A DNA stretch of 64,000 bases from Patescibacteria group bacterium (GCA_038063415.1 JBBTVD010000006.1:137948-201947), one strand, 5' to 3'; positions 1,194-25,375 are shown, counted from the first letter of the stretch. Translations and numbers: made by a program. The notes: generated by a model not told the origin, from the sequence alone.

Positions 1194-1242
1194 ATTAGCC
1201 TCTTGACAGCCTGAGTGTCAATAGTGTAATCTAGGCTCATTC

Positions 1243-1539: not shown

Positions 1540-1566
1540 GTAAACGTGAAGGGGGGTGATTATACT

Positions 1567-1710: not shown

Positions 1711-1730
1711 TTTGTTTCCTAAGAAACAAT

Positions 1731-1758
1731 AAAACCCCGCATTATTGCGGGGTTTTTG
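1731..1758. terminator. rho-independent terminator hairpin (AAAACCCCGC-ATTATT-GCGGGGTTTTT), potentially bidirectional
   Basis: Perfect 6-bp GC-rich stem (1735-1740 and 1747-1752), flanked by an A-run upstream and a T-run downstream. Confidence 0.6.
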
Positions 1759-1781
1759 GTATGATGAAATAGTAGCCACGT

Positions 1782-4928: not shown

Positions 4929-4932
4929 AATA

Positions 4933-7049: not shown

Positions 7050-7146
7050 AGCCTCTATCTTACTAAATTTGGAAGCTTTTTGGAAGAGAGAGTATTTTTG
7101 GGGATTGCAACTACTTGGTAAAATTAGTATTATAATTTCATTCTGT

Positions 7147-8151
7147 ATGGCAAAGAAAGCATTAATTATCGGCGTTTCTTCACAAGATGGATCATACCTT
7201 GCTGACCTGCTGCTGGAAAAAGGCTATGATGTCACAGGAACGATTAGAAGAACAACAAACTACTACCATCCGAATATTACTCACCTCTACGGAAAAATAG
7301 CTATTGAAGCAGCAGATCTTATCGATAGTGAAAGTATCATTAACGCAATTAAAAAAAGTACACCTGATGAAGTCTACAATATTGCAGCACAATCCGTTCC
7401 TGGTGATTGCTGGACACATCCTTTTTATACCGGTGAAGTAACTGGTCTTGGACCTGTACGAGTTGCCGAGGCAATAAGACATTTCGCTCCCAATGCGAAA
7501 TTTTATCAAGCTACTTCTCGTGAAATTTTTGGCAATATTGCATCTGAATCTGCAAATGAATCAACACTCTTTGATGCCAACAATCCCTACGGCATCGCAA
7601 AAGCGTATGCACATATGATGATACGCTCTTACCGTGAGTCTTATGGTATGTTTGCCTGTGGAGGTATTTTATTTAACCACGAAAGCCCACGTCGAGGATT
7701 ACATTTTGTTACCCGAAAAATTACTGCCGGGGTTGCTTGTATCAAAAATAAAGTTAAAAATCTGCCAATGAATGAATTAGGAGAACCTCTCATCAGTAAC
7801 GATGGCAAACTACATATGGGCGATATAACGATGAAGCGAGATTGGGGATATGCCAAAGAATATGTTGAAGCAATGTGGCTGATGCTGCAACAAGATAAAC
7901 CAAATGACTATGTTATTGGGACAAACACCACCTACTCCATTGAGGATGCCTGTCGTATTGCATTTGCACACGTAGGGCTTGATTGGAAAGACTATGTCGT
8001 CAGTAACAAAAAACTCTTCAGACCTACCGAAATCAAAGAACTCAAGGGAGATTATGCGCGTGCAAAGAAAGATTTAGGCTGGGAACCAAAAACATCATTT
8101 GAGGAGCTTATTACCATGATGGTTGATGCGGATCTTAAGCACTTTAGTTAA
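7147..8151 (+). CDS. gmd: GDP-mannose 4,6-dehydratase
   Basis: MAKKALIIGVSSQDGSYLADLLLEKGYDVTG...ATSREIFG...NPYGIAKAYAHMMIRSY...GILFNHESPRRG are classic Gmd blocks. The track ORF 6925-8151 carries an N-terminal extension across the divergent promoter region, so the ATG at 7147 was chosen. Confidence 0.85.
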   Translation: MAKKALIIGVSSQDGSYLADLLLEKGYDVTGTIRRTTNYYHPNITHLYGKIAIEAADLIDSESIINAIKKSTPDEVYNIAAQSVPGDCWTHPFYTGEVTGLGPVRVAEAIRHFAPNAKFYQATSREIFGNIASESANESTLFDANNPYGIAKAYAHMMIRSYRESYGMFACGGILFNHESPRRGLHFVTRKITAGVACIKNKVKNLPMNELGEPLISNDGKLHMGDITMKRDWGYAKEYVEAMWLMLQQDKPNDYVIGTNTTYSIEDACRIAFAHVGLDWKDYVVSNKKLFRPTEIKELKGDYARAKKDLGWEPKTSFEELITMMVDADLKHFS

Positions 8152-8170
8152 ATTAAGACGAACTCTCCAG

Positions 8171-9127
8171 TTACACTTCTTTTCTCCAGTAATCAAGAAT
8201 TGCTTTAAGGCTCTCTTCAAGTGAAATTTCAGGCTTCCAACCAGTCAGATTATGCATCTTACTTGTATCTGCACGGATTTCAGGGACATCACTTGGTCGC
8301 AATTTTGTTGCATCTACTTCAGGATGAATAGCGACCGATGATAAAGAAAGTAAGATATCAAGCACTTCTTGTATTGAATGAGAGACACCTGAACCAATAT
8401 TGTAGACCTCTCCCTCTTTACCTCTTTCGAGGAGTAGGACATATGCTCGTACCATATCGCGAACATCAGTAAAGTCTCGACGAGCCTCTAGGTTGCCAAT
8501 ATGGATGATTGGTTTTTGTTTACCTTTTTCTATATGTGCAATTTGTCTAGCGAAGTCTGAGGTGACAAATCCTGTTTTTTGACGAGGGCCAATATGGTTA
8601 AATGGCCGTACACGGATAAGTGGTAATTGATATGAAAGGTAATACTGTAGTGCTATATAATCCTGGGTTATCTTTGATACAGCATAAGGATTTACTGGAC
8701 GAAATGGCGTTGTTTCTTTTATAGGAATATCTTGCGGATCAAGTCTTCCGTACGTCTCAGCTGAACCGACAATCAGTACTCGTGTCGATACGAACGATTG
8801 CTCACGAAGGACATCAAGAAGATATATTTGTGAATCAATATTTGCATGAAGGGTTTTAATTGGATCCTCAAAACTCTGTGGGACATTTGATTGGGCAGCT
8901 AAGTGATAGACATAATCAGGATGACTCTGTGCAATGGCAACTCGAACTGCTTGTTTATCGGTAAAATCTGCTTTAATGAAATGAATGTTGTCTTTGACTG
9001 GTGAACGATCAAGACTTCCCTCAGAAGAATAGGTTCCGTAGATTTCTGCTTCACCTTTTTGCAACAAGTATTCACACAGATATCCACCAACAAAGCCAGA
9101 GGCCCCAGTAATTAATATGCTTTTCAT
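8171..9127 (-). CDS. rmd: GDP-4-dehydro-6-deoxy-D-mannose reductase (GDP-D-rhamnose synthase, Rmd-type SDR)
   Basis: ITGASGFVGGYL...SAETYG...NPYAVSK...RPFNHIGPRQKTGFVTSDFARQIA...DFTDVRD closely parallels Pseudomonas Rmd. It sits next to gmd. Confidence 0.7.
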   Translation of the reverse strand: MKSILITGASGFVGGYLCEYLLQKGEAEIYGTYSSEGSLDRSPVKDNIHFIKADFTDKQAVRVAIAQSHPDYVYHLAAQSNVPQSFEDPIKTLHANIDSQIYLLDVLREQSFVSTRVLIVGSAETYGRLDPQDIPIKETTPFRPVNPYAVSKITQDYIALQYYLSYQLPLIRVRPFNHIGPRQKTGFVTSDFARQIAHIEKGKQKPIIHIGNLEARRDFTDVRDMVRAYVLLLERGKEGEVYNIGSGVSHSIQEVLDILLSLSSVAIHPEVDATKLRPSDVPEIRADTSKMHNLTGWKPEISLEESLKAILDYWRKEV

Positions 9128-10410
9128 CGTCCAACACCAACGTAGGTAAATCCTAATCCTTTGACTGTTTCAGGATCGTAGATATTTCGTCCATCAATAA
9201 TGGTTGGTTTCTTAATTAGTTTTTTTACCTTTTGCAGATCAATCTGCTTAAATTCATTCCATTCGGTGACTATTACCAGAATATCTGCCCCCTCGACACA
9301 GGTATAAGGATCATCAACAAAAGTGACCTTATCTTTAAAGACTGCTCGTGTCTTTGGAATACCTTCAGGATCATACGCTGTTACCTTAAATCCTTTTTGC
9401 AGGAGGTCTTGAATTAAATATGTTGCAGGTGCTTCTCGGATATCATCAGTATTTGGCTTGAAGCTCAACCCCCAAACTGCAACATTCTTCCCTTTTGTAT
9501 TGTCCAAAATTTTCTGTAACACATTTTCTCGAGCTTGAGTGTTTACACTATCAACGCCATCAAGAAGTGTCGTATCAATCCCAAGCGAATGACCTATTTG
9601 AATGAGGGCTTTCACATCCTTTGGAAAGCATGAGCCACCATACCCAATACCTGGGTTCATAAAAACACGCCCAATCCGTTTATCAAGGCCAACAGCATCA
9701 AGAACCTCCTCAATGTTGGCACCTGTTTTTTCACTATAAAATGAAATTAAATTCGCAAAAGAAATTTTTGTGGAAAGAATTGCATTTGCCGTATATTTAA
9801 TCAATTCTGCTGATGCCAAATTGGTAATAACACGAGGCGCATCAATTCCTTCGTGAAGTGTCACCATACTATCAATTGCTCTTTTTGAGTCTGAACCAAT
9901 AACTACTCTATCAGGGTGGAGTGTATTGGCAAGGGCAGTTCCCTGGCTTAAGAATTCAGGACAGGAAGCAATCGCAAATGCAGCGTCTTTTGGCTTTACG
10001 GAATTAAGAATTTCTGCTACCTTTTCATTTGTACCGATCGTTACGGTACTCTTACAAGAAACAACAGTAAAGCCTTTTTTCAAATGTTTACCAATTTTTT
10101 CGGCGACAGTAAATACAGCAGAGAGATCAGCAGCACCTGATGTCTGGGGTGGAGTACCGACAGCAATAAAGACCACATCAGATTCACTAACTGCTTTCTC
10201 ATATTCTGTGGTAAAGTTCATTCGCTTTGCCTTAAGATTCTTTTTGAGTAGCTCTTCAAGCCCTGGCTCAAAGATTATTGGATCACCCTTTTTGAGGCGT
10301 TCAATTTTTTCTGGAGTATGTCCGATGACATGTACCGTATTGCCCAAATCAGCAAAGACGCTTGCAGTAACCAGTCCTACGTATCCATGGCCGACAAAAG
10401 TAATCGTCAT
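9124..10410 (-). CDS. ugd: UDP-glucose 6-dehydrogenase
   Basis: MTITFVGHGYVGLVTA N-terminal NAD motif, catalytic Cys region GGSCFPKDV, and a UDP-Glc/GDP-Man dehydrogenase family architecture. It is adjacent to uxs. Confidence 0.8.
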   Translation of the reverse strand: MTITFVGHGYVGLVTASVFADLGNTVHVIGHTPEKIERLKKGDPIIFEPGLEELLKKNLKAKRMNFTTEYEKAVSESDVVFIAVGTPPQTSGAADLSAVFTVAEKIGKHLKKGFTVVSCKSTVTIGTNEKVAEILNSVKPKDAAFAIASCPEFLSQGTALANTLHPDRVVIGSDSKRAIDSMVTLHEGIDAPRVITNLASAELIKYTANAILSTKISFANLISFYSEKTGANIEEVLDAVGLDKRIGRVFMNPGIGYGGSCFPKDVKALIQIGHSLGIDTTLLDGVDSVNTQARENVLQKILDNTKGKNVAVWGLSFKPNTDDIREAPATYLIQDLLQKGFKVTAYDPEGIPKTRAVFKDKVTFVDDPYTCVEGADILVIVTEWNEFKQIDLQKVKKLIKKPTIIDGRNIYDPETVKGLGFTYVGVGR

Positions 10411-10463
10411 ATAAGAATAAAACTAAGAATAAACTAATAACCCAGTAAATGCAATAGTTAATT

Positions 10464-11345
10464 TCACTCTATCACCGGGCTAACCTCATGTATTGCATCT
10501 GAAAAAGACCGCATCGTTAGCCCAAGTTCTGTAATCTTGTTATTGTTTAATGCTATATTATACGGACGAGGAGCCTTCCCGGAGAAATATTCTGCGCGGG
10601 TTGTCTCGCTAATCAGTGAACGATCATAGCCAAACCTCTCGGCAATGAGTAAGGAAGCTTCGTACGGAGTAAGACTCTGCCCCCCAACAATATGATAAAT
10701 ACCTTGGGAATCGCTTGTTATAAGCTTATCAAGAGCAAATGCAATATCGTCAATATAAGTTGGACTCATAACATGGTCCGTAACAGCACGGATTTCTTGT
10801 CCTGTTGATAATCGATCCATAATTGCATGAACAAAGTCTTTTTTCACTGCAAAGGCATCCTTACGGAATGGATAAGCAAGCCTTGCAATAATAAATGGCA
10901 AGCTCGACTCACGAACATGTTCTTCTCCTAAATACTTTGTCTGCGCATACCAATTGACTGGGTTACAATCATCCTCTTCAGTGTATCCTCCCTCTGGAGC
11001 GTTTTCTCCGTCAAAAACAAAATCAGTTGAGATATAGATAAATTTTTTATTTGTCGGAAGACAGGCATCAAGGACGTTTTGCGTTCCCAAAACGTTTATT
11101 TTGTAAGCGGAACCATCCTCACCAAGCAAACGATCTGCCTCACACCCATCAACGTCTGCTTTTGCAGCCATGTGGATCAACAACTCATGTTCTTTGTCAT
11201 TGCGTATTGGCCCAAGTGTTGTCGGGTCCGTTATATCTACGCCACTTTCAAGACTAAATTGATCAACAATATAATTCTTAGAAAGAAGCTCTACGACACG
11301 AGAGCCAACAAGGCCAGATCCACCGATCATAAAAATCTTCTTCAT
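10464..11345 (-). CDS. rfbD: dTDP-4-dehydrorhamnose reductase
   Basis: MKKIFMIGGSGLVGSRV...ISTDFVFDG...NWYAQTKYLGE is the RmlD signature (STDxVFDG, YxxxK). Confidence 0.8.
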   Translation of the reverse strand: MKKIFMIGGSGLVGSRVVELLSKNYIVDQFSLESGVDITDPTTLGPIRNDKEHELLIHMAAKADVDGCEADRLLGEDGSAYKINVLGTQNVLDACLPTNKKFIYISTDFVFDGENAPEGGYTEEDDCNPVNWYAQTKYLGEEHVRESSLPFIIARLAYPFRKDAFAVKKDFVHAIMDRLSTGQEIRAVTDHVMSPTYIDDIAFALDKLITSDSQGIYHIVGGQSLTPYEASLLIAERFGYDRSLISETTRAEYFSGKAPRPYNIALNNNKITELGLTMRSFSDAIHEVSPVIE

Positions 11346-11890
11346 AGCTGTACCTTCCCTTCTTTTAATAACGTATTGAGTAATAAAATACCAGCTACAT
11401 GCGAAGCGACAAGTATTTCTCCAGATAATGCTTTTGCAACAGCCTCTGAAAAAGGCATCTTTACCACAGAAATGGCCTCATCAGCATTAGGACTCGCTGT
11501 ACCTTCTTGCACATCAAAAGCAGCAAAGATATAATTCGTTGAACGCATATTTGCTGAGACTTCCCAGGTAGCAATTTTTTCTAATCGACCGGCAGTTAAA
11601 CCCGTTTCTTCCTTTAGCTCTCGCTTTGCTGTTTCAATCGGATCGTCTCCAGACTCAATTGTTCCAGCGCAAATTTCCAATATTTCTTTCTGAAATGAAT
11701 CACGATATTGTTGCAATAAATATATTTCTCCATTTTTGCTTAGAGGAAGGATGAGAGCAGCTGCATTTCTCTCGATAAAATCTTTGGTAAAAGTTCTGCC
11801 ATTTCTCTCTATCTGTTTTTGTACCACACGAAAATACTTAGCCTGATACATTGTTTTTTCTGAGAGAATCCGGGTCGAATTATTTGCCAT
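11342..11890 (-). CDS. NUDIX hydrolase (possibly GDP-sugar/ADP-ribose pyrophosphatase)
   Basis: NUDIX box GTIESGDDPIETAKRELKEETGL. The track ORF extends to 11950 and overlaps rfbB. The ATG at 11888-11890 (MANNS...) overlaps the rfbB stop by 11 nt in ATGGCAAATAA, suggesting translational coupling. The ATG at 11851 is an alternative start. Confidence 0.65.
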   Translation of the reverse strand: MANNSTRILSEKTMYQAKYFRVVQKQIERNGRTFTKDFIERNAAALILPLSKNGEIYLLQQYRDSFQKEILEICAGTIESGDDPIETAKRELKEETGLTAGRLEKIATWEVSANMRSTNYIFAAFDVQEGTASPNADEAISVVKMPFSEAVAKALSGEILVASHVAGILLLNTLLKEGKVQL

Positions 11891-12890
11891 ATTGCTTTGC
11901 GTAATACTCTTGATACTCCCCTGATTTAATACTTTTCCACCACGATTCATGTTCTGTATACCAAGTTACTGTCTTTTCGAGCCACTCCTCGAACGTATGT
12001 TGTGGTTGCCATCCCAGTTCGTTTTTGATCTTTGACCAGTCGACATCATACTTACGATCATGCCCTGGCCTATCTTTGACAAATGCAATAAAGCTTTCGT
12101 CTTTGCCAAGCAATTGAACAATCATTTTGACAATTTCAATATTGGGCTTAAGTTCGGTCATTCCACCGACAAGATAGGTCTCTCCTATTTTGCCTTTCTG
12201 CAACACCAAATCGATAGCACGAGCATGGTCATCAACATATAACCAATCACGAACATACAGCCCATCACCATACACAGGAACCTTTTTGCCTTCCAGTAGG
12301 TTGGTAATAGCCAGTGGAATTAATTTCTCCGGAAACATATAGGGGCCAAAATTGTTTGAACAATTGGTAATCGTAATTGGCAACCCATAGGTTATGTTAT
12401 ATGCCCTGACCAAATGGTCAGATGCTGCTTTACTGGCAGAGTACGGACTACGTGGAGAATAAGGAGTATCTTCAGTAAACTTCTTGTGATCTTCAAGTTC
12501 TAGTGATCCAAATACTTCGTCTGTTGAGACATGATGAAAGTGTTTAATGTTCTTTTTGAGAGCCGCATCCAGAAGCACTTGCGTACCAAGCACATTTGTT
12601 TCTATAAAAACGGCAGGTCCGATAATAGATCTGTCTACATGCGTCTCAGCAGCAAAATGAACGATAGTATCGATTCCTTCCATTGCGGAGGATACAGCCG
12701 CAGGATCACAAATATTTCCATGAACAAACGCGTAGTGAGGGTTATCTTGCACAGAGCGAAGATTTCCCAAATTACCAGCATAAGTTAATTGGTCAAAATT
12801 AACAATGTGATCACCAGGATGTTCACGCATCCAATAAAGGATAAAGTTAGAACCAATAAATCCAGCTCCACCGGTAACAAGCAGTTTCAT
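11880..12890 (-). CDS. rfbB: dTDP-glucose 4,6-dehydratase
   Basis: MKLLVTGGAGFIGSNF...VSTDEVFG...YSASKAASDH is the canonical RmlB. Confidence 0.9.
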   Translation of the reverse strand: MKLLVTGGAGFIGSNFILYWMREHPGDHIVNFDQLTYAGNLGNLRSVQDNPHYAFVHGNICDPAAVSSAMEGIDTIVHFAAETHVDRSIIGPAVFIETNVLGTQVLLDAALKKNIKHFHHVSTDEVFGSLELEDHKKFTEDTPYSPRSPYSASKAASDHLVRAYNITYGLPITITNCSNNFGPYMFPEKLIPLAITNLLEGKKVPVYGDGLYVRDWLYVDDHARAIDLVLQKGKIGETYLVGGMTELKPNIEIVKMIVQLLGKDESFIAFVKDRPGHDRKYDVDWSKIKNELGWQPQHTFEEWLEKTVTWYTEHESWWKSIKSGEYQEYYAKQYGK

Positions 12891-12897
12891 AAATGTA

Positions 12898-13623
12898 TTA
12901 TGCCAATTCGCCTTTCTTTACTTTTTCGGCGATAAAGTTATTTACACGCAGAAGTCCATCAAAAGTTCCAGCATCTTCCCACCAGCCATTGAGGACGCTT
13001 ACCTTCAATTCTTTGGTCTTAAAGTACTGCATATAGAGATCAACAATCTCGATCTCTCCCCGATCTGAAGGCTTGAGATCGAGAGCAAATTCCGAAGCAC
13101 GGTTATCAAAAACGTAAATACCAGGTACAGCAAAGTTGCTCTTTGGCTCTTTTGGTTTCTCAACAACAGAAAGCACATTGCCCTCTGAGTCAAATTCAAC
13201 GACAGCTGACTTCTCAGGATCTGCGACTTTTTTTGCAAAAATATGTCCTCCACTTTTAAAGTTTTTGATAGGATCAGTGAAGTCATCCTCAAAAATATTA
13301 TCTCCAAGAATCATCGTTACATTGTCTCCCTTGATAAAATCCTTCCCGACAATAAACGCGTCGGCCAATCCCCGCGGCTCTTCCTGAATTTCATACGTAA
13401 ACTTTACGCCAAATTCTCTCCCTGAACCGAGTAAATTAAGAAAATGACCAGCATATTGTGGAGCAATAATGATAAGAATTTCCTTAATTCCTGCCTGAAT
13501 AAGCGTATTCAGTGGATAAAAAATCATGGGTTTATTATAGACAGGCAAAAGCTGCTTCGAGGTTATTTTGGTCAATGGTCGAAGGCGTGTAGCACTTCCT
13601 CCAGCAAGAATAATTCCTTTCAT
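12898..13623 (-). CDS. rfbA: glucose-1-phosphate thymidylyltransferase (short form)
   Basis: MKGIILAGGSATRLRPLT...KQLLPVYNKPMI...GDN... 241 aa, short RmlA type. Confidence 0.8.
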   Translation of the reverse strand: MKGIILAGGSATRLRPLTKITSKQLLPVYNKPMIFYPLNTLIQAGIKEILIIIAPQYAGHFLNLLGSGREFGVKFTYEIQEEPRGLADAFIVGKDFIKGDNVTMILGDNIFEDDFTDPIKNFKSGGHIFAKKVADPEKSAVVEFDSEGNVLSVVEKPKEPKSNFAVPGIYVFDNRASEFALDLKPSDRGEIEIVDLYMQYFKTKELKVSVLNGWWEDAGTFDGLLRVNNFIAEKVKKGELA

Positions 13624-13639: not shown

Positions 13640-13900
13640 TTAGAAATTAAAAAGAAACAAGGACAGGATGAACCCTAAGCTTCCTATTAGGACATATTCT
13701 ATCACAATTTTTAATGGGATGTTATGATGAATTGCATGGTGGAGTAGCCCCCAGGTAATGTAGAAGAGAGTCAAACCTAAAACAATAACAATCTGCATAT
13801 TTTTGTCTCCTTGCACCAAAAAGAGTAACAAAATACACACGCTTGCAACAACGAAAGAGACGCAGTAGTACCAAATATGCTTCATAAAGTCGCTATTCAT
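13640..13900 (-). CDS. small membrane protein (2-3 TM)
   Basis: 86 aa and highly hydrophobic. It is tightly spaced between rfbA and the CAP-domain gene. Confidence 0.3.
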   Translation of the reverse strand: MNSDFMKHIWYYCVSFVVASVCILLLFLVQGDKNMQIVIVLGLTLFYITWGLLHHAIHHNIPLKIVIEYVLIGSLGFILSLFLFNF

Positions 13901-14805
13901 TATAAAATTACTCCTTTCCCAATGAGTATACCAGCAATAAGCAGCGCCGTTAGAAAGATAATATGATCAATGTTGTGCGCCACGATACGCGTTACTTGTT
14001 TACGCCCAATGACAATTGCGTCGATAATAAGTACACCAATAAAGAGAATAAAAATAAATAATGCGATATTTCTTGTGGTTGATTTACTATCAATAAGTGG
14101 TCTGTTTTCCAGAGATGCAACAATCTCTGGAGCGCCTCGTTGTTCGTCATTAAAAGGATTGACTGATGCTTCAAAACTTACTCGAGGGATAGCTGGTGTC
14201 GGGAAAGTCTGTCCAAGCGTTGTGGGTTGTTGTTCCTGAGCAATATATTTTGTGCCAAACATTTCTACCACAAGTACCGTATCTGAACCAGTCAATTCAC
14301 CTGTTTTAATAGCAAAACCAACCTCATTATAATTTGGTGAAAGCATATTTTCTTTGTGAGAAGGACTATGTATCCATGCCGTGACTACCTCAGGAGCGGT
14401 AGTAAATCCACGAGCAAGATTTTCTCCCGCATAAAGATATTCATAGCCGCTATTTCTGATAAATAACCACGGGGTTGTTCCATCGGGAGCAATATGTGCC
14501 CAGTAATTCTTGGTAAACATATGATCAGCTTTTAACGTAGCTGCGGTTGAAAGTTGGTCATTGAGACGCAATGGTGTTAAGCCTTCTTTTTCCCGTTCTT
14601 TGTTGGTTAAGGTGAGAAGCTCTTGCGCTGAGATATCGGCGGTAATACTCAGAACAGCAGGATAGTCACGTCGTACAAGAGTACTGGATACACTGATGAT
14701 GCAGAGAGCAATAACAAGCACAAAGAGACTCTGGTGATGTAATACTTTGGGACGGTGGTTATTGGTATGATGTGGTACAAAAAGATGCCGCAAAAAACTG
14801 AACAT
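13900..14805 (-). CDS. CAP/SCP (cysteine-rich secretory protein family) domain protein, membrane-anchored
   Basis: N-terminal TM, then a CAP domain (GLTPLRLNDQLSTAATLKADHM...WIHSPSHKENMLSPNYNEVGFA), then a two-TM C-terminal anchor. Confidence 0.6.
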   Translation of the reverse strand: MFSFLRHLFVPHHTNNHRPKVLHHQSLFVLVIALCIISVSSTLVRRDYPAVLSITADISAQELLTLTNKEREKEGLTPLRLNDQLSTAATLKADHMFTKNYWAHIAPDGTTPWLFIRNSGYEYLYAGENLARGFTTAPEVVTAWIHSPSHKENMLSPNYNEVGFAIKTGELTGSDTVLVVEMFGTKYIAQEQQPTTLGQTFPTPAIPRVSFEASVNPFNDEQRGAPEIVASLENRPLIDSKSTTRNIALFIFILFIGVLIIDAIVIGRKQVTRIVAHNIDHIIFLTALLIAGILIGKGVIL

Positions 14806-16962: not shown

Positions 16963-17826
16963 TTAGTTCCCTCTTCTTATTTTATTGTATAGCAGTATAC
17001 CACAACTTACTAGTAATACCGAGCCTGCTAAAAGAAATGGAGCTGCTTTTGGTACAGCACTTTGTATATCTTTAACCAATACTGCAGTTTTTTTCTTGGC
17101 ACTTTGTGATGCTTCCTTTTTCTTGGCAGAGCTTGTACTTACCCCAAGTATGGGTGAAGGATAAAATCTTTTGGAGGTAGCACTCGGTGAAGCTTTTGCT
17201 CCTGGACTGAGTTTTATAAACAATTCATCTGTTGTTTGCGACATATCCTCCTCTTTTATCGTTGGATTTTTTGTCGCATTGAGTTCATTTTCAAGTTTTT
17301 CAGTGGGTGCTGGTTTCTGTGTCGGAATAGGAGTAGGAGTGATGGTAGGTGCTGGCGGATTATTACTTTCTCCTTTTGATGGAGAGGAGAGTATCTGGAA
17401 CTGACCAGTTGCATTAGGATATCTTCCAATGGTTACCTCCACTCCAGAGTCTTGGGTATAGCTATACTGATCAACAATCGTCCCTTCAGCAGTAAAGAGT
17501 ACTACCGTGTCGCTATTGTTGTTAAATAATGAACTTACTTCCATGATAAAGTAATCAGAAGCATAGCCTGCGACACTATTTTCTAAACTTCTTTTTGATC
17601 CATTACCGGCATCATCCATAAAACTCGTATCATCATCGATCCAATAGGTCGTAAGTTGTATATCTGATGGAGCAACTATTTCTACCCATTCTTTATTCTC
17701 GCTACTTGGATGAGTAGAAAACTCATTAATAACGGGAGTAGACAGAGCAAATACCCTAGGTGGAATAAAGAAAACAAATGCAAAAAAGACCCAAATTAAT
17801 CTTTTTAAATTAGCTATATATCTCAT
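16963..17826 (-). CDS. secreted lamin-tail-domain (LTD) protein with Pro/Thr-rich linker and C-terminal membrane anchor
   Basis: Signal peptide, LTD signature (PVINEF...EWVEIV...N), PAPTITPTPIPTQKPAPT linker, and a C-terminal TM plus basic tail. Confidence 0.55.
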   Translation of the reverse strand: MRYIANLKRLIWVFFAFVFFIPPRVFALSTPVINEFSTHPSSENKEWVEIVAPSDIQLTTYWIDDDTSFMDDAGNGSKRSLENSVAGYASDYFIMEVSSLFNNNSDTVVLFTAEGTIVDQYSYTQDSGVEVTIGRYPNATGQFQILSSPSKGESNNPPAPTITPTPIPTQKPAPTEKLENELNATKNPTIKEEDMSQTTDELFIKLSPGAKASPSATSKRFYPSPILGVSTSSAKKKEASQSAKKKTAVLVKDIQSAVPKAAPFLLAGSVLLVSCGILLYNKIRRGN

Positions 17827-17896
17827 ATGATTTAAGTTTAGTATATTTTACTTGGGAGAGTAAAGAGGCTTATTTACTCATATTACACAATGCTCC

Positions 17897-17966
17897 GTCA
17901 TTCTGGCTTGTCCAGAATCCGTCATATGATCCTGGATGCGCTCGTACCTTGCTTACCAGGATGACG
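17897..17966. repeat. palindromic element copy (GTCATTCTGG-CTTGT-CCAGAATC hairpin plus CGTCATATGATCCTGG...CCAGGATGACG inverted repeat)
   Basis: Same TGTCATyC termini family as at 15785. The 23-nt hairpin is identical to 23917-23939. Confidence 0.55.
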
Positions 17967-18032
17967 TTGGCGTAACGTGAATTATTTAGTTTAGCTACAA
18001 AAAGAACGGTGAGGAGTTATACTCGTAGATTA

Positions 18033-19274
18033 TTAGTTATACCAACCGTACTGAAAGATTTGCCCGGTGGAGTAATATTGGTTAAACGAAAGATCAGTAC
18101 CATTCCATGGGTCGTTCATTACATAGCTCCCTCCAGAGCCACTCTTAAGAACGATAAAGTGGGTTCCAAAGGGACCTGCTTTCACCCCTACAATCACTGG
18201 TTCTCCACCCGAAAGCTTGTCATCAATTGCACTTTGGCTAAAGCCCCAGGATGATGAAATTTTGCCACCTGCCCACGGGATTAACATATAAGCAGTATTG
18301 GAGAAGAAGTAGCCACCATTGCTGGTAATATCAGCTGGCGTTACACCTTGACCATGTTTCTTCATAACCATCGCGATTGAGGTAGCAAGACAACCAACTT
18401 CCCATACCTTTTCGCCAGATGAACCCATATTGCCATTCCCCCATCGTTCATCTCGTTGGTTGTAATACCAACCATCTGGACTTGCCTGCGCAGGAAGGAT
18501 TGAAGCACCTGATCCTACACGAGATGTGGCAAACGATTTAAATGAGTTAATCTGTGCTCGCGCTTCTGAAAGCATCCGTTGGTATCTCGCCTCATCGTTT
18601 TTGGTCACAGAGAGTAACTCCTGTTTGGTTGCTTTGTCTTTATCAAGTTGTGCGGTATATCCCTGAAGCTCAGTCTTGAGATCTTCCACTTTTTTCTTCT
18701 TACCTTCTAGCAGTGATTTTTGATTGGCATAATCATTGCGTGCTTGTTGCGTATTATAGAGAAGTTCCTTATCATGAGCTTGCACAATACGAAGATAATT
18801 TGCTTTGGTAATTAAATCTTCTGCATCTCCTGAAGCAAGCAGCATCTGCATTGGACCACCACCGCCATTTTGGTAGGTAGCAACAATCCTATTGAGTAAA
18901 GTCTCAGATACCTTTTCAAGAGAGTCTTCCAGATTTTCCATACGCTTCCCGGCAGAATCAATATCAAGCGTTAGATCCATAATCTGTTGTTCATTGGACT
19001 GTATTTTATATTCGGTCAGTTTAATTTGATTATCCATGGCGTCTATCTGAGAAGAAAGCGAGTTGCCTTGAGAACGCAGGTCAGAGACTTTTCCTTCCAG
19101 TTCCACAATACGATCATTGAGTTCTTTAATTCTTGAGGAATTATCTGTCGTTGCAGGTGTAGTACTTGGAGTTTGTGCGTGAACCGTACCCTGCCACACA
19201 AATGATACGCTGAGTAACAAAAGAAAAATACTTGTAAAGAGAATGTTGTTCTTAGACATAGATAGGTAAAGCAC
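18033..19274 (-). CDS. secreted coiled-coil protein with C-terminal C39-like (papain-fold) cysteine peptidase domain; candidate FtsEX-controlled peptidoglycan hydrolase (PcsB/EnvC analog)
   Basis: Signal peptide and ~250 aa of heptad-rich coiled coil. The C-terminal domain has a catalytic Cys context (WEVGCLATSIAMVMKKHG) and His (GTHFIVL), like the Peptidase_C39_2 family. The gene lies immediately downstream of ftsE-ftsX. Confidence 0.6.
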   Translation of the reverse strand: MLYLSMSKNNILFTSIFLLLLSVSFVWQGTVHAQTPSTTPATTDNSSRIKELNDRIVELEGKVSDLRSQGNSLSSQIDAMDNQIKLTEYKIQSNEQQIMDLTLDIDSAGKRMENLEDSLEKVSETLLNRIVATYQNGGGGPMQMLLASGDAEDLITKANYLRIVQAHDKELLYNTQQARNDYANQKSLLEGKKKKVEDLKTELQGYTAQLDKDKATKQELLSVTKNDEARYQRMLSEARAQINSFKSFATSRVGSGASILPAQASPDGWYYNQRDERWGNGNMGSSGEKVWEVGCLATSIAMVMKKHGQGVTPADITSNGGYFFSNTAYMLIPWAGGKISSSWGFSQSAIDDKLSGGEPVIVGVKAGPFGTHFIVLKSGSGGSYVMNDPWNGTDLSFNQYYSTGQIFQYGWYN

Positions 19275-19289
19275 TGGGATTAGCCCATT

Positions 19290-20156
19290 TTACTTCAAAT
19301 AGCGGAGAACTGCAAGTGAGCTGGCAATGATACCCAAGACAACCGCAATCAGAAGTTCAATTCCGAGCAAGATAAAGAGGAATAAAGGCGATGCGGGAAG
19401 TACTGGTACGCCTTGAAGGAAGGTCTCAAGATATGGAGTCGCGTACAAAAGTCCTGCGGAAGCAAACAGCCAGCCAAAGACAGTCCCAACAACGCCATAG
19501 AAGATCCCTTCAATGACAAAAGGCCAACGGATATACCAATTGGTAGCGCTGAGTAGCTTCATAATCTCAATCTCATCTTTCTTTTGGGCAACCTTAAATC
19601 CAATGACCGTCATCATGATAAAGATAGAAACGAGTGCAAGGGTAGCAATAAGCGTAACACCAATAATACGAATAGCATTCGTCCAAGCCGTTAAGGTTGA
19701 AACGATATCTTTTTGATAGACTACTTCTGAAATTGACGGATTCTGCTTGAGGGTCTCTGAAATTTCATCCAAATCATCAAGTTGTGTGGTCGAAATTTCA
19801 ATCGAAGCTGGTAAGATATCTTCGGTTACTAAATCCAAAAGCAATGGATCTTCTTTATTTTGTTCTTTATAAATTTCAAGTGCTTCTTCTTTGGAAACAT
19901 ATTTCATCGTGGCAACTTTACCAGTTTGATCAAGTGAACTACGAAGCGTATCGACATCTACTTGGGTTGCTTCATCTTTAAAGAAAGCAGTTACCTGAGG
20001 TTTTGATTCAAAGTAACTAATGATCATGGAAGACCCGACAACAATAAAAGCAAAGACTGAAATAGAGAGAAAGGTCAACAGCATAATAAAAATAGCAGCT
20101 ATTGCCTGATAGGGACTTCTTCTGATATGTTTCCAACTGGTTTTTGCGTGTCGCAT
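19290..20156 (-). CDS. ftsX: cell division permease FtsX
   Basis: 288 aa with TM1, a large extracytoplasmic loop and three C-terminal TMs. The N-terminus reads MRHAKTSWKHIRRSPYQAIAAI. Confidence 0.8.
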   Translation of the reverse strand: MRHAKTSWKHIRRSPYQAIAAIFIMLLTFLSISVFAFIVVGSSMIISYFESKPQVTAFFKDEATQVDVDTLRSSLDQTGKVATMKYVSKEEALEIYKEQNKEDPLLLDLVTEDILPASIEISTTQLDDLDEISETLKQNPSISEVVYQKDIVSTLTAWTNAIRIIGVTLIATLALVSIFIMMTVIGFKVAQKKDEIEIMKLLSATNWYIRWPFVIEGIFYGVVGTVFGWLFASAGLLYATPYLETFLQGVPVLPASPLFLFILLGIELLIAVVLGIIASSLAVLRYLK

Positions 20157-20157
20157 A

Positions 20158-20835
20158 TTATCCTTTCTTTTCTCTTTTATCGTCTCGTGTTAAGACGCCT
20201 TTTTCAAGTACCAATACTCGCTTCATCAGACTGTTTACAATATCAGCGTTGTGTGTAGCCATGATAATTGTGGTCCCTGCAGCGTTGATATCCTGTAGCA
20301 GCTTTACAATTTCCCATGATGTTGCATTATCAAGATTGCCGGTTGGCTCGTCAGCAAGTAAGATTTCTGGCGAGAAGGCAAGCGCGCGGGCTATGGCTGC
20401 TCGCTGTAGTTCACCTCCAGAGAGCTGTACGGGAAATTTGTCACTGTGTTCGGATATCCCTACCTGAGCAAGAATCTCATCAACTCGTCTCCGAGCAGCA
20501 TTGTCTTCCATATCTGCTACCTCCAAAGGAAAAAGAACATTTTCAAAAATTGTTCGATCACGAAGTAACTTGAGATCTTGAAAGACTACGCCAACACGCT
20601 TACGGAGATGAGGAATTTTCTTCCGTGAAAGCTTCACCAGATCCCAATCGCCAATCATAACTGAACCAGTCGAGGGAACCATATCCCGGATAAGGAGACG
20701 GAAAAGCGTTGTCTTACCGGAACCAGAAGGCCCTACGAGAAAAACGAATTCACCAGGCTCAATAGCAAAGGAAACATCTTCCAAAGCAGTATTGCCGGTA
20801 GGATATTTTTTGGTTACATTTTCAAATTTAATCAT
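20158..20835 (-). CDS. ftsE: cell division ATP-binding protein FtsE
   Basis: MIKFENVTKKY...GPSGSGKTT...LSGGELQRAAIARAL...LLADEPTGNLD. The start was set at MIKFENV; the longer track ORF overlaps the upstream gene. Confidence 0.85.
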   Translation of the reverse strand: MIKFENVTKKYPTGNTALEDVSFAIEPGEFVFLVGPSGSGKTTLFRLLIRDMVPSTGSVMIGDWDLVKLSRKKIPHLRKRVGVVFQDLKLLRDRTIFENVLFPLEVADMEDNAARRRVDEILAQVGISEHSDKFPVQLSGGELQRAAIARALAFSPEILLADEPTGNLDNATSWEIVKLLQDINAAGTTIIMATHNADIVNSLMKRVLVLEKGVLTRDDKREKKG

Positions 20836-20837
20836 AC

Positions 20838-21299
20838 TTACTCCACTACTTCTACTTTGCCTACATCCATAAGCCAACCAGCTTTTTGCGCTTGCTGTGT
20901 CTCGCCCCACACTTTGATCTTTCTTCCAACGAACAACGATAGGTCAATGACCGAGGAGGTCAGATAGACATTTTGACTTTCTCCGCCTTTGCGTACGAGA
21001 TGATATTGTCCTTCTCCCTCAATACCACCTTCTTGCAAATCTCCCTCAGCCGTGTCGGTAAACGTTGCCCGATCATCTGAGCCATATGTTTGTCCGACAG
21101 CAACCTCTTGCTTGGTTACAGGAGCCTTCTGAACTCCTCCACCAGGCTCTGACATGACGGTAACAAGTGCCCATCCAGAACCGATACCAAGAACTGCCGA
21201 AAGAGCAAGTACTGTCAGAGCCTTTCCGACAGAAACACCTTCTTTTTGTTCTGCAAAGCTATGCATTACCGGCGCTGGTGTTCTTTCTTGCTGTTCCAT
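20838..21299 (-). CDS. hypothetical membrane-anchored protein upstream of ftsE
   Basis: 153 aa, one TM (ALTVLALSAVLGIGSGWALVTV) and a soluble C-terminal domain. No family recognised. Confidence 0.4.
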   Translation of the reverse strand: MEQQERTPAPVMHSFAEQKEGVSVGKALTVLALSAVLGIGSGWALVTVMSEPGGGVQKAPVTKQEVAVGQTYGSDDRATFTDTAEGDLQEGGIEGEGQYHLVRKGGESQNVYLTSSVIDLSLFVGRKIKVWGETQQAQKAGWLMDVGKVEVVE

Positions 21300-21404
21300 G
21301 TGTCATTTCAGTAAGTTATCCCTATGCTTAGTAAAACACATTTTCTTTTTTTTGGCAACCCGACACCTATTGACAGAGGCATGTTCTTCATATAGAGTGA
21401 CTGC

Positions 21405-22250
21405 ATGAATCTCCCAACACTTCTCAGACAAAAACGTACCATTATTATGGGTATTATAAATAGTACCCCTGATTCATTCTCGGATGGTGGAGACTACTAT
21501 AATAATACAGACAAAACACTTAATCGAATCAAAAACATGCTTACACAAGGAGCAGATATTATTGATATTGGGGGCGAATCAACCAGACCAGGCTCTGAAC
21601 TCATCAATAGCGACGAAGAATTACGAAGAGTGCTTCCCCTTATTACCGCTATGAGACAAGCTTTAGGAGAAGAAATTATTATTAGTATTGATACCTGGAA
21701 ACATACCGTGGCACAGGAAGCACTCAGAGCTGGAGCAACGATGATTAATAGTCTGGGTGGATTGCAACTCGATCATAAGCTGGCAGATGTGGTAGCCCAC
21801 TATCACTGCCCTATCGTCATCTATCATATTAAAGGTGAACCCAAAACCATGCAGCAAGGGGAAATAACCTATACTGACGTCATGCAAGCAATTGCAGACT
21901 TTTTTACTGAGCAATTAAGGCTAGGAGAAAAAGCAGGTATCACAAGAAAGAATTTTATTCTTGATCCTGGTATTGGATTTGGCAAGACAGTTGAACAGAA
22001 TCTCGAAGTTATCAAACGATTAAAAGAATTACAGCAGTTTGATCTGCCGGTACTTATTGGTGTTTCACGAAAGAGTCATCTGGCAATGATTTTGCAAGAA
22101 GAGCTTGGAGAAGAAATTCTTCCAAAGGACAGACTTGAAGCATCACTTGCTGAGACTGCTATTGCGATCCAGAACGGAGCACAGATCGTCAGAACACATG
22201 ACGTCTGGGAAACCAAAAAGTTTGTAACAGTCCTTGAGAAATTTTTATAA
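21405..22250 (+). CDS. folP: dihydropteroate synthase
   Basis: IMGIINSTPDSFSDGG...IIDIGGESTRPG...DTWK...DPGIGFGK. Confidence 0.85.
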   Translation: MNLPTLLRQKRTIIMGIINSTPDSFSDGGDYYNNTDKTLNRIKNMLTQGADIIDIGGESTRPGSELINSDEELRRVLPLITAMRQALGEEIIISIDTWKHTVAQEALRAGATMINSLGGLQLDHKLADVVAHYHCPIVIYHIKGEPKTMQQGEITYTDVMQAIADFFTEQLRLGEKAGITRKNFILDPGIGFGKTVEQNLEVIKRLKELQQFDLPVLIGVSRKSHLAMILQEELGEEILPKDRLEASLAETAIAIQNGAQIVRTHDVWETKKFVTVLEKFL

Positions 22251-22252
22251 TT

Positions 22253-22606
22253 ATGGATACTCTTTTTATCAACGATATTACGCTTCCTTGTACCATCGGT
22301 GTTACGGAGTTGGAAAGAAAAGAGAAACAAACCCTTATTATTACTGTGGCACTTTCCGTTGACCTACAAAAGGCAGGAGAAACAGATAATGTAAACGATA
22401 CGGTAAATTATAGTACTCTTTATCAACACATCGTTAAAGTCACAACAGGCTCAAAATTTTTCCTTATGGAGGCTCTCGCTCAACAAATTGCAACCGTTTG
22501 TCTTGAGGATAAACGAGTAAAACAAGCAAAAATTCGTATTGAAAAACCGAAGACGGTACGACTGGCCCGTTCTGCTGCCGTAGAAATAATAAGAACCAAT
22601 GAGTAA
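22253..22606 (+). CDS. folB: dihydroneopterin aldolase
   Basis: 117 aa. [34 protein letters not shown] is the FolB pattern. Confidence 0.75.
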
Positions 22607-23162
22607 TAAAAAAATTGAATTACTAATCACACAACTATTGCAAGAATTGGGAGAAGACCCCTCTCGTGAGGGACTTAAAAAAACACCCAGAAGAGTGAGT
22701 CACATGTTTACCGATCTGACCAAAGGATACACTACTACTCGGGCAACAACCATCAATAAAGCACTTTTTACTGAACAAGTGCACAATATGATTATCCTTC
22801 GAGATATCGAGCTCTATAGTCTGTGCGAACATCACCTCTTACCTTTTTTTGGCAAGTGTCATATCGGCTACATTACCAAAGGCAAAGTAATTGGCGTCAG
22901 TAAAATTGCCAGAATTGTCGATCGATTCGCAAGGCGACTACAAATCCAGGAACGATTAACACAAGAAATAGCCAACGAGCTACAAGAAGTATTACAACCT
23001 TTGGGAGTTGGTGTAGTTATTGAAGCACAGCATCTTTGCATGATGATGCGAGGTGTAGAAAAGCAAAACTCCGTTATGGTGACAGCAGCAGTCCTTGGCA
23101 ATTTCCGAAGCGAACTGGCTACCAGACAAGAATTTATGACGATTATTCACAAAAATATATGA
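22599..23162 (+). CDS. folE: GTP cyclohydrolase I
   Basis: GLKKTPRRV...[20 protein letters not shown]...QERLT...HLCMMMRGV. Confidence 0.85.
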
Positions 23163-23860
23163 AGATTCCAGGCGTTTTTACGACAATTAAGATTACTCAT
23201 GGACAACCGATCTTTCTTGAGAAACATCAAGCAAGACTTATCGCTCATGCCAAACAAGCAGGTTTCCAAATCCATACGACTGCTATAACACAAAAAATAG
23301 TAACATGGTTGCAAGATCATCCGCTAAAAGATTGTGTACTCAAAATAAGTATTTTAGGAGAGTATAAGGAACCAGAAATTCTTTTTGCTACCCGAGAGTT
23401 ACCACAAACCTCAGGTTCAATTCGCCTCATTAGTGTTCCTGATAATCGCGATGTGTCAAAAGTTATCAAAAGTATTGATCGGACAATGTATGAGCAAGCA
23501 AAGCAAATGGCGCAAGCAAAAGGAGCTGATGATGCGATCTTTGAAGAAGATGGATACCTGATCGAATCAACGATCTGTAATCTTTTTTCTCTCAATAAGA
23601 AAGGTGAAATTATTACTCCACCAATTGCTGGTAAAGGGTTAGCAGGAGTTATGCGGGCAAGCATTATGGAAAATTTTCCGGTTCGTGAAGAACCTATCCC
23701 AAAGACAACAAACGGACCATTGGTTTTGACAAATAGTTTACGGGTACAAAAAGCAAGTTCGCTTGATGGAAGAATACTCGCTGACGGAGAAGTATTGTTA
23801 GAAAAACTAAAAATAACAATAAATAAAGCCGAATTTAAATATCTGTCATCCCGTACTTGA
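23159..23860 (+). CDS. pabC: aminodeoxychorismate lyase (class IV PLP aminotransferase fold)
   Basis: MKIPGVFTT...[12 protein letters not shown]...GVMR is a PabC-like pattern. The ATG at 23159 overlaps the folE stop. The track ORF extension 23036-23158 was rejected. The stop codon lies within the terminal repeat of a palindromic element. Confidence 0.6.
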
Positions 23861-23939
23861 TACGGAATCCATGGATTCCCGCTTTTGCTGGAATGACAAT
23901 TCTAAGTTTTTTATTCGTCATTCTGGCTTGTCCAGAATC
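23844..23939. repeat. composite palindromic element (TGTCATCCCG...GGAATGACA with internal 16-bp perfect palindrome GGAATCCATGGATTCC, followed by GTCATTCTGGCTTGTCCAGAATC hairpin)
   Basis: Termini are inverted repeats with one mismatch. The second hairpin is identical to 17897-17919. The element occupies the entire pabC-pabB intergenic region. Confidence 0.55.
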
Positions 23940-23950
23940 TTTTATTTAAA

Positions 23951-25375
23951 ATGCACAATAAAAAATTACCAATCTGGGTCGATCCCAAAGCAGTCTTTAC
24001 TGATCTTTTTGCCGCGGCTCCGGCAGCCTTTTGGCTTGATACAAGTCTGCCCAACGATGAAAAGAGATTCTCCTATATGGGCCTACCCAAAGAAATTATC
24101 TCCTACGACCTTCAAACTAATACAATAACCATACAGAAAGATTCTCACATCACAAAAATAACCCAAGATATCTTTACTTATCTCAATAGGAAGCTACAAC
24201 AACAGGCTTTTGAAGACAAAACACTTCCTTTTCCCTTTATCGGAGGATACGTCGGTTACTTCGGTTATGAATTAAAAGCACTCTGCGGAGTGAAAAACAC
24301 CTACCAGTCTCCTTATCCTGATAGTGTATGGTTCAAGGTTGAGCAATATATTGTCTTTGACCATCAAGAAAAAGAGGTTTACCTTGCTTGTCTAACAAAA
24401 AAAAAGCAACTTGCAGACAAATGGTTCCAGGACATACAAAAAAATTTATTGTCATCCCGAGTACCCCATAGAAAGTCGAGGAATCTCACACCGCAGAGAA
24501 ACTTGTTTGCAACAGACCCCTCCACTCGTTCCTCGGTCGGGATGACATTTTCCCGTGAACAACAACAATATCTTAAGGACATACAAACAGCTAAAAAATA
24601 TCTTAACAAAGGAGAAAGCTATCAAATTTGTCTTACCAATACCCTTACCAAAAAAGTAACAATTGACCCCCTTCTTCTTTATCAAACGCTGAGAAAAAGT
24701 AACCCTGCTCCGTATGCTGCGTATCTTCGCTATAATGATCTCACCGTTCTCTGCTCTTCTCCCGAACAGTTTCTCAAAATTGATGCAGGTGGAACAGTCA
24801 CAACCAAACCAATCAAAGGAACAATAGCTCGTGGTAATACCTTGCAAGAAGATATCTTGCTTAAAAAACAACTCGCAGAAAGCAAAAAGGACTGGTCAGA
24901 GAACGCTATGATTATTGACTTACTACGAAATGATCTGGGGAAAGTATGTACGTTCGGTTCGGTAAAAGTAACAAAACCAATGGCAATAGAGACGTATCAA
25001 ACAGTACATCAACTTGTTTCAACGGTACAGGGCAAATTACATAAGGATACTTCAGTTATTGATTGCATCAAAGCCTGCTTTCCCGGCGGATCAATGACCG
25101 GAGCGCCAAAAACACGAACAATGGAAATTATTGAAAAATTAGAAAAGCAAGCACGAGGCATCTATTCTGGAGCACTTGGATTTCTTAGCTACAATAAAAC
25201 AGCGTCACTGAACATCGTTATCAGGACGATGGTCATGCAAAAAGATGCGGTAAGTATTGGCGCTGGTGGAGCCATTTTGATTGATTCAGATCCAGAGAAA
25301 GAATATGAAGAAATGCTACTCAAAACAACAGCTTTACAAAACGCGATTCAAAATTCTTTAGAGAGTGAGGAATAA
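23951..25375 (+). CDS. pabB: aminodeoxychorismate synthase component I
   Basis: Chorismate-binding domain blocks SYQICLTN, PEQFLKI, TKPIKGT, DLLRNDLG and FPGGSMTGAPK. It carries an in-frame ~33-aa insert at residues ~167-200, encoded by a palindromic element. Confidence 0.8.
   Translation: MHNKKLPIWVDPKAVFTDLFAAAPAAFWLDTSLPNDEKRFSYMGLPKEIISYDLQTNTITIQKDSHITKITQDIFTYLNRKLQQQAFEDKTLPFPFIGGYVGYFGYELKALCGVKNTYQSPYPDSVWFKVEQYIVFDHQEKEVYLACLTKKKQLADKWFQDIQKNLLSSRVPHRKSRNLTPQRNLFATDPSTRSSVGMTFSREQQQYLKDIQTAKKYLNKGESYQICLTNTLTKKVTIDPLLLYQTLRKSNPAPYAAYLRYNDLTVLCSSPEQFLKIDAGGTVTTKPIKGTIARGNTLQEDILLKKQLAESKKDWSENAMIIDLLRNDLGKVCTFGSVKVTKPMAIETYQTVHQLVSTVQGKLHKDTSVIDCIKACFPGGSMTGAPKTRTMEIIEKLEKQARGIYSGALGFLSYNKTASLNIVIRTMVMQKDAVSIGAGGAILIDSDPEKEYEEMLLKTTALQNAIQNSLESEE
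24450..24547. repeat. 98-bp palindromic MITE-like element inserted in-frame inside pabB (perfect 11-bp terminal inverted repeats TGTCATCCCGA / TCGGGATGACA)
   Basis: The termini are exact reverse complements. It belongs to the same terminus family as the elements at 15785 and 23844. The pabB reading frame stays open through it. Confidence 0.6.

Follow-up and report, generated by a model that had tools for sequence, protein, structure and literature searches.

Positions 18,033 to 21,299 of a 64,000-nucleotide stretch of Patescibacteria group bacterium DNA (GCA_038063415.1, JBBTVD010000006.1:137948-201947; the whole stretch is called the window below) carry, on the minus strand, ftsE and ftsX followed by a gene for a secreted coiled-coil protein that ends in a C39-like cysteine peptidase domain. 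We propose that this protein, here called the partner, is probably an FtsEX-controlled cell-wall hydrolase of the division site in which the catalytic cassette has been swapped. All of the evidence presented here is computational. The window has a G+C content of ~40%, and its source is an uncultured member of the Patescibacteria, Microgenomates/Levybacteria-like. Four genes, orf153, ftsE, ftsX and the gene for the 413-residue partner, are tightly packed in that order, with intergenic gaps of 1-30 nucleotides. An earlier reading of this DNA, made from its letters only (the sequence-only reading), had placed ftsE-ftsX followed by a coiled-coil, C39-like gene in this interval and proposed a PcsB/EnvC analog with a different hydrolase module. 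All of these features are present, and the proposal itself is supported by the coiled coil, the C39-like domain, the synteny and a natural exchange with M23 domains. The novel point is the C39-like catalytic family, since the regulatory logic is already known from EnvC, PcsB, CwlO and RipC, and databases label the family loosely. A C39-like domain would be a fourth type of catalytic module for this logic rather than the third that had been suggested, because CwlO and RipC already use NlpC/P60 (PMC11627006). In the literature, no paper was found linking FtsEX to a C39 or C39-like partner, nor any describing an FtsEX partner in Patescibacteria.

The partner gene (18033..19274, minus strand; supported by its open reading frame (ORF), Pfam, AlphaFold and Foldseek) encodes 413 residues from a GTG at 19274, or 408 residues in the NCBI model, which starts from an ATG at 19259; the identical NCBI protein is recorded as 'MAG: hypothetical protein AAB553_01950, Patescibacteria group bacterium' (MAG, metagenome-assembled genome). 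Residues 1-33 (19176..19274, minus strand) read as a signal peptide with probable cleavage after VHA, before Q34. AlphaFold places a hydrophobic helix at residues 8-25, and the V-x-A motif followed by Q is kept in 37 relatives. As expected for the FtsEX-partner class, the protein is predicted to be exported through this signal peptide. A short Thr/Pro-rich linker leads from here to the coiled-coil scaffold, residues 46-253 (18516..19139, minus strand), which was assigned from AlphaFold secondary structure, Pfam CC_PcsB, NCBIfam and Foldseek. In the full-length AlphaFold model (37 sequences; mean predicted local distance difference test score (pLDDT) of 83, and >90 in the globular domain), helices run over residues 46-137 with a kink at 70-72, 141-147 (short), 151-224 and 228-253, a helical region of ~210 residues where the sequence-only reading had estimated ~250 of coiled coil.

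This long, antiparallel coiled coil is of the EnvC/PcsB/RipC type. Three NCBIfam models are co-linear with the partner from its N-terminus, namely EnvC (4e-9, aligned to residues 44-241), the DIP1281 NlpC/P60 protein (8e-9) and RipA (4e-7), whereas generic coiled-coil matches such as SMC (~1e-4) are clearly weaker. Pfam CC_PcsB aligns to residues 113-179 with 25.8 bits (E 1e-5), narrowly missing its cutoff of 27. A sequence search of the PDB with the full partner returned generic coiled-coil matches only. Comparison of the full-length model with the PDB by Foldseek gave, among the top seven matches, PcsB (4cgk), the FtsEX/RipC complex (8idc_E), Cg1735 (8aud), FtsX-bound EnvC (6tpi and 8tzl) and the N-terminal domain of RipA (6ewy). 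The hairpin tip, the expected FtsX contact, was considered as the best-conserved part of the coiled coil and rejected: per-block conservation, with its maxima at residues 71-90 and 161-190, does not pick it out, and we make no claim on it as the FtsX contact.

PcsB of S. pneumoniae, an FtsEX-activated CHAP hydrolase (4CGK), is the best whole-protein structural match to the partner, and both proteins begin with a signal peptide, continue into a long coiled coil and end in a Cys/His peptidase of papain fold. They differ in that the partner domain is C39-like and not CHAP, in that the partner gene is clustered with ftsEX, and in that the partner has two long helices and one shorter helix in place of the five helices of PcsB (PMC11627006). 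EnvC of E. coli and Vibrio, a LytM amidase activator (6TPI, 8TZL), resembles the partner both in the alignment of its equivalog model and in structure; the globular domain of the partner, unlike that of EnvC, is a cysteine peptidase whose catalytic set is intact. A coiled coil is likewise joined to a C-terminal papain-superfamily cysteine peptidase in RipC (mycobacteria and corynebacteria) and CwlO (B. subtilis), both directly activated by FtsEX. In structure, RipC chain 8idc_E ranks third among the matches to the partner, whose family is annotated 'CwlO-like' by JGI. The catalytic domain of the partner differs from that of RipC and CwlO, however, in not being NlpC/P60. The usual C-terminal domains of the FtsEX-partner class are LytM, CHAP or NlpC/P60, and the partner carries none of these, which is its point of difference from the class.

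The C-terminal domain, residues 262-413 (18036..18491, minus strand), is a C39-like papain-fold cysteine peptidase domain, as indicated by a Peptidase_C39_2 match, a domain model and Foldseek. Against a cutoff of 24, Peptidase_C39_2 (PF13529) scores 25.0 bits on the whole partner and 28.3 bits on the domain alone, rising to 58.9 bits in more distant relatives of the domain; Peptidase C39 proper (PF03412) gives 15.5 bits on the partner, below its cutoff of 22. Among the catalytic domains of 21 relatives, Pfam detects Peptidase_C39_2 in 21/21 and Peptidase_C39 weakly in 19/21, with CHAP and NlpC/P60 each at 0/21. A dedicated model of the catalytic domain (pLDDT 91.4) has as its best Foldseek match the B. 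anthracis C39-like peptidase 3ERV (E 1e-4, probability 1.00, 13% identity), so that the earlier Peptidase_C39_2-like assignment holds by Pfam score, by relatives and by fold. The next neighbours are papain-like CdiA toxins, the pseudomurein endoisopeptidase PeiR, ComA, SpeB and PCAT1. No CHAP or NlpC/P60 structure occurs in the top 50 matches, and an identity as CHAP or NlpC/P60 was rejected on the Pfam and structural results alike. CHAP, NlpC/P60 and C39 are all papain-like, and within these folds the modelled domain lies closest to C39-like structures. A sequence profile of the domain found nothing meaningful in the PDB, and the C39-like relationship is hence visible only via the Pfam profile and the fold.

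Four residues form the candidate catalytic set, all on the minus strand and all with their codons verified: Gln273 in a YYNQRD motif (18456..18458), the candidate oxyanion-hole residue; Cys295 in VGCLATS (18390..18392), the candidate nucleophile; His372 in GTHFIV (18159..18161), the candidate general base; and Asp388 in MNDPW (18111..18113), 16 residues past the His, the candidate third residue of the triad. They are invariant in 37/37 relatives (51-72% identity) and in 16/16 metagenome C39 alleles, and their equivalents are also retained in a 26%-identical homolog from Moranbacteria. Their Gln-Cys-His-Asp order is that of Peptidase_C39_2. The sequence-only reading had located the Cys in GCLATSIAM and the His in GTHFIVL; these are C295 and H372, and their invariance shows that both had been correctly picked. 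It had also named a missing Cys/His dyad, or membership of a non-hydrolase family, as grounds for giving up the idea, and what we find is an invariant C295/H372 pair in a domain matched by Peptidase_C39_2.

Invariance at these positions bears on a reading in which the C-terminal domain would be catalytically silent and would serve to activate a separate amidase allosterically. E. coli EnvC, with its degenerate LytM domain, is the precedent for a non-enzymatic globular domain in an FtsEX partner (PMC11627006). Conservation of all four residues in the 37 relatives and the 16 alleles, and in the Moranbacteria homolog, argues against such a role, as does the retention of all zinc ligands in the M23 alleles described below. 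A silent, EnvC-like domain was rejected on the invariant catalytic residues, and we regard it as highly improbable.

The described members of Peptidase_C39_2 are uncharacterised single-domain peptidases encoded near transporters, with substrates unknown (PMC10318531). The partner domain resembles such members (e.g., 3ERV) in scoring above the Pfam gathering threshold and in the order of Q...C...H...D, and differs from them in being fused to an FtsEX-partner coiled coil. With the C39 domains of ComA and PCAT1 it shares a papain-like fold (TM-score ~0.5) and the 16-residue spacing from His to Asp; unlike them it is C-terminal on an extracellular coiled coil, without fusion to an ATP-binding cassette (ABC) exporter, and its Gln-to-Cys spacing is 22. 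C39-like domains are listed among endolysin catalytic domains, including the mycobacteriophage LysA 'N5' domain (PMC3314691) and C39_2 in lysin surveys (PMC8223927), which gives a wall-cutting precedent, although these assignments are themselves bioinformatic and the phage relatives of the partner domain are weak. Indeed, the phage relatives amount to four weak matches, all on unannotated phage contigs (30-32% identity, E 8e-5 to 8e-3). Literature searches on YvpB returned nothing useful.

The slot after ftsX is also occupied by a second hydrolase type. In Collierbacteria, reached via orf153, orf153-ftsE-ftsX is followed by a 393-residue protein with a C-terminal Peptidase_M23 domain (40.5 bits, cutoff 28.7), so that in these sister Microgenomates the slot holds a coiled-coil M23 protein with the architecture of EnvC. 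The coiled coils of the window partner and of the M23-type partner of locus L052 align gap-free over 197 residues, of which 29% are identical (E 1e-20). A scan of metagenomes anchored on orf153 gave 80 loci, 41 of which had enough sequence after ftsX to be classified; the slot encodes an M23 domain in 25, a C39 domain in 15 and neither in 1. In a neighbour-joining tree of FtsE and FtsX the C39 and M23 types are interspersed, with several nearest-neighbour pairs opposite in type.

The exchange is seen most directly between L092 (C39) and L095 (M23), which come from two independent groundwater assemblies and are 99.4% identical over 7.8 kilobases (kb) including orf153, ftsE and ftsX. In their partners, residues 1-183 are 100% identical, after which the sequences diverge, and a nucleotide identity of 95% returns inside the next gene, the first half of which is included in the divergent tract. 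L132 (M23) and L133 (C39) show the same pattern. In all, three pairs from different samples (L092/L095, L132/L133 and L065/L079) are ~98-99% identical through orf153-ftsE-ftsX and into the partner as far as residue 183-209, and differ in their enzyme domains. Close relatives have M23 on this very coiled coil, so the cutting domain looks like a cassette that can be exchanged. Across all alleles, identity in the main coiled coil (residues 50-180) is 45.1% within types and 45.1% between them, whereas in the last helix (residues 226-250) it is 54.7% within module types versus 38.2% between, and in L092/L095 this helix moves with the catalytic module. What is exchanged, then, is the enzyme domain together with the last helix, and in the natural chimeras scaffold gives way to cassette somewhere around residues 184 to 225.

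A circular permutation marks the M23 alleles, whose HLHF motif stands ahead of H-x-G-x-D (L052:7169-8350, L095:7189-8379, L132:6937-8097 and 22 more loci). When the L052 sequence was re-permuted, its Pfam M23 match grew from positions 62-96 (40.5 bits) to positions 2-96 of 96 (49.2 bits). The zinc ligands (H-x3-D, H-x-H and the final His) are kept in 24/24 M23 alleles, and with all of them conserved the M23-type partners look, from their sequences, catalytically active. In this intactness, as in the permutation, the M23 alleles of the lineage differ from E. coli EnvC, whose LytM domain is degenerate (PMC11627006). In a literature search, no paper describing circular permutation of an M23 domain came up. 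We tentatively suggest, at slightly short of an even chance, that Microgenomates possess a recombining FtsEX-hydrolase cassette in which a C39-like or a permuted M23 module has been repeatedly exchanged, with orf153 as a fourth component. If this were so, a core divisome enzyme would be polymorphic within populations, and the uncharacterised Peptidase_C39_2 family would gain its first physiological role.

The same exchange speaks to what the C39-like domain cuts. It could be a protease that processes a protein or peptide (one that is secreted or belongs to the divisome, or a precursor of the double-glycine type) and remains tethered to FtsEX and timed through the coiled coil. Such a substrate would fit the closest characterised relatives with known substrates, ComA and PCAT1, which act on leader peptides, and SpeB and AvrRpt2, which cleave proteins; it would also fit a 2023 classification of papain-like enzymes that assigns both C39 and C39_2 to a papain/cathepsin cluster separate from NlpC/P60 (PMC10318531). 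Several observations point instead toward the wall. The domain trades places with M23, a peptidoglycan endopeptidase family, while both slot and coiled coil stay the same. The top structural matches include PeiR, which cleaves isopeptide bonds of the (pseudomurein) cell wall; predicted endolysins contain C39-like domains; and in the cluster we noticed no gene for a precursor carrying a double-glycine leader. On balance we think a protein- or peptide-cleaving protease unlikely and favour a wall hydrolase. From the M23 interchange, the structural neighbour PeiR and the predicted C39-like endolysin domains, we infer that the substrate of the partner would be peptidoglycan.

The full-length architecture of the partner is present in 1158 clusters at E<=1e-3, and a profile of the catalytic domain collects 426 representatives (50% identity level) at E<=1e-10, the best 150 of which are nearly all 400-450 residues long with the domain C-terminal. 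All source names found for these proteins are Patescibacteria (Levy-, Woese-, Shapiro-, Ames-, Roizman- and Moranbacteria), and their automatic names include 'CwlO-like peptidoglycan hydrolase' (JGI), 'C39 family peptidase' (NCBI) and an older, mistaken 'Peptidase M23'. Many loci, L003, L004 and L006-L008 among them, have public MAG titles of 'uncultured Gammaproteobacteria' or 'Pseudomonadales', which look like placeholders or errors given the gene content of these loci and their similarity to those of Levybacteria. A contig labelled Saccharimonadales (L047) opens with the C-terminal 63 residues of a C39-type partner (5-193, 54% identity), and tsaE comes next; the family may reach Saccharibacteria, or the contig may be mis-binned.

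Genomic linkage of the partner to ftsEX is strong. The order orf153-ftsE-ftsX-partner was found in 39/47 Microgenomates genome loci, and in the remaining 8/47 either the contig ends within the cluster or no orf153 match was found; Roizmanbacteria have this order too, as do 40/41 of the orf153-anchored metagenome loci with enough sequence after ftsX. Since the arrangement recurs in dozens of independent loci, the cluster is not a product of chance. A functional link between the partner and FtsEX, including binding to the extracellular domain of FtsX, would be consistent with this linkage.

In the window, ftsE (20158..20835, minus strand), encoding the ATPase subunit of FtsEX, matches both ABC_tran (8.7e-35) and the TIGR02673 FtsE equivalog, whose cutoff of 264.85 it passes with 271.2 bits. 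The mechanical ORF opens earlier, at a GTG at 20910, and the TIGR02673 alignment begins at its residue 26; the start of ftsE is the ATG at MIKFENV. One nucleotide separates ftsE from ftsX (19290..20156, minus strand), which encodes the membrane subunit with its extracellular domain. The ftsX product contains a complete FtsX_ECD domain (8.2e-19, 68.4 bits, cutoff 23.5; residues 54-145, profile positions 2-96/96) and the FtsX permease domain (3.8e-12, 46.7 bits, cutoff 25.5). It stays under the cutoff of the NCBIfam FtsX models (FtsX_Gpos, 187.6 bits vs 225), as is expected for a divergent phylum. A scan of 17600-21700 for promoters and terminators gave counts no higher than the shuffled expectation, and the operon boundaries are supported by the 1-30-nucleotide intergenic gaps alone.

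The first gene of the cluster, orf153 (20838..21299, minus strand), has its stop codon 2 nucleotides before the ftsE ATG; the sequence-only reading had ftsE, ftsX and the partner gene right but missed this fourth gene in the same interval. Its product is a small protein that crosses the membrane once: a cytoplasmic tail at the N-terminus precedes the single transmembrane helix, and a conserved outer domain of ~85 residues, ending in AGWLMDVG, follows it. Three motifs of the outer domain, G-E-G, S-Q-x-V-Y-L-T-S-S and A-G-W-L-M-D-V-G, are highly conserved. The gene lies directly 5' of ftsE in 39/47 genome loci, and its family comprises >4466 clusters, every one of them named 'hypothetical', with no relative detected in Pfam or the PDB. 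The CwlO and RipC systems have extra membrane cofactors, SweCD and SteAB, which offer a possible analogy. By this analogy orf153 is a candidate FtsEX accessory factor, with a role perhaps comparable to that of SweCD or SteAB, and a very large family without annotation may thus contain a new FtsEX cofactor.

Several points weigh against the partner being an FtsEX-controlled wall hydrolase. Canonical C39 peptidases cut double-glycine leader peptides and not the cell wall, and the literature searched yielded no Peptidase_C39_2 protein with proven peptidoglycan hydrolase activity. The CC_PcsB score lies just below the Pfam cutoff, and similarity among coiled coils can be convergent. The swap pairs are metagenome assemblies, so chimeras could have arisen at the joins during assembly. 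Furthermore, the full-length homolog of Moranbacteria and other Parcubacteria (26% identity, E 4e-39) does not lie beside ftsEX but between gltX and a NUDIX gene, and a linkage to ftsEX was looked for in Parcubacteria and not found, so that linkage supports coupling only in Microgenomates. The Moranbacteria/Parcubacteria loci L048-L051 share a conserved block consisting of a sigma factor gene, three unknown genes, gltX, the partner gene and the NUDIX gene. The Parcubacteria proteins with a coiled coil and C39_2 form a sister subfamily of 731 clusters at E<=1e-10, which some old records call 'Peptidase M23' though Pfam shows C39_2 alone.

The unlinked Parcubacteria homolog would also suit a different explanation, in which the partner is a secreted weapon or host-interaction factor of an episymbiont, its cassette swapped like those of polymorphic toxins and its place beside ftsEX either incidental or serving only export or anchoring. 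Exchange of cassettes between near-identical strains is typical of conflict systems, and the structural neighbours of the domain include CdiA-CT toxin domains and a papain-like toxin/immunity pair. Yet the order of the cluster is kept wherever the sequence sufficed to read it, with the 1-30-nucleotide gaps of the window, and the coiled coil is homologous to known FtsEX partners, which are often unlinked to ftsEX in model bacteria too. Nor is there a consistent immunity-like small gene 3' of the partner gene, where the next gene encodes a lamin-tail-domain membrane protein or is tsaE. A secreted weapon is in our judgement quite unlikely, even less likely than a protease acting on proteins or peptides.

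If the partner is indeed a division-site hydrolase under FtsEX control, it would be exported by its Sec signal peptide and its coiled coil would dock on the extracellular domains of the FtsX dimer, by analogy with the FtsEX-EnvC and FtsEX-RipC complexes (PMC11627006, PMC10694151). ATP binding and hydrolysis by FtsE would be relayed through FtsX and the coiled coil, and the relayed movement would free or position the C-terminal catalytic domain. Through Gln273, Cys295, His372 and Asp388, the C39-like domain would then cut peptide bonds of septal peptidoglycan, leading to separation of the daughter cells. Binding of the partner to FtsX and its control by ATP are thus presumed from the related complexes. 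The catalytic end, that is, the last helix and the enzyme, would be exchangeable, sister strains carrying a permuted M23 domain with intact zinc ligands on the same scaffold. The last helix, by comparison with the restraining arm of EnvC, may be a module-specific autoinhibitory element.

FtsEX with its coiled-coil partner is a conserved switch that licenses wall cleavage at division and is of interest as an antibiotic target. In such a system the coiled coil would, if our proposal is right, be a general-purpose actuator, independent of the chemistry that it controls. That such hydrolases are modular is in itself predictable. The proposal also gives Peptidase_C39_2, a large and uncharacterised family, a function that can be tested, and offers a first handle on how the wall is split in the hard-to-culture bacteria of the Candidate Phyla Radiation.

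Next 3' of the partner gene, at 16963-17826 on the minus strand, the window encodes a 287-residue protein. Its N-terminus is signal-like, it matches the Lamin Tail Domain weakly (30.2 bits, below the cutoff of 34.3), and beyond a stretch rich in Pro and Thr it has a hydrophobic anchor at the C-terminus. The gene occupies the same position in ~16/47 related loci, where it is followed by tsaE. Divergent from the ftsEX cluster, at 21405-25375 on the plus strand, lies an apparent folate/pterin biosynthesis block, so called from its position relative to the Roizmanbacteria locus L053, where genes for Pterin_bind, FolB, GTP_cyclohydroI, Chorismate_bind and HPPK occupy the same place (1-4898). A cell-surface sugar block on the minus strand at 3363-13623 encodes a PMT_2-type glycosyltransferase, a GT2-GtrA fusion, several NDP-sugar epimerases/dehydratases, a UDP-glucose dehydrogenase, an RmlD-like reductase and a nucleotidyl transferase, a set that points to synthesis of the dTDP-rhamnose type. 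A secreted CAP-domain protein is encoded at 13900-14805, and a tRNA-Pro (GGG) at 53014-53085 on the plus strand is the sole RNA gene detected in the 64 kb by ARAGORN and Rfam.

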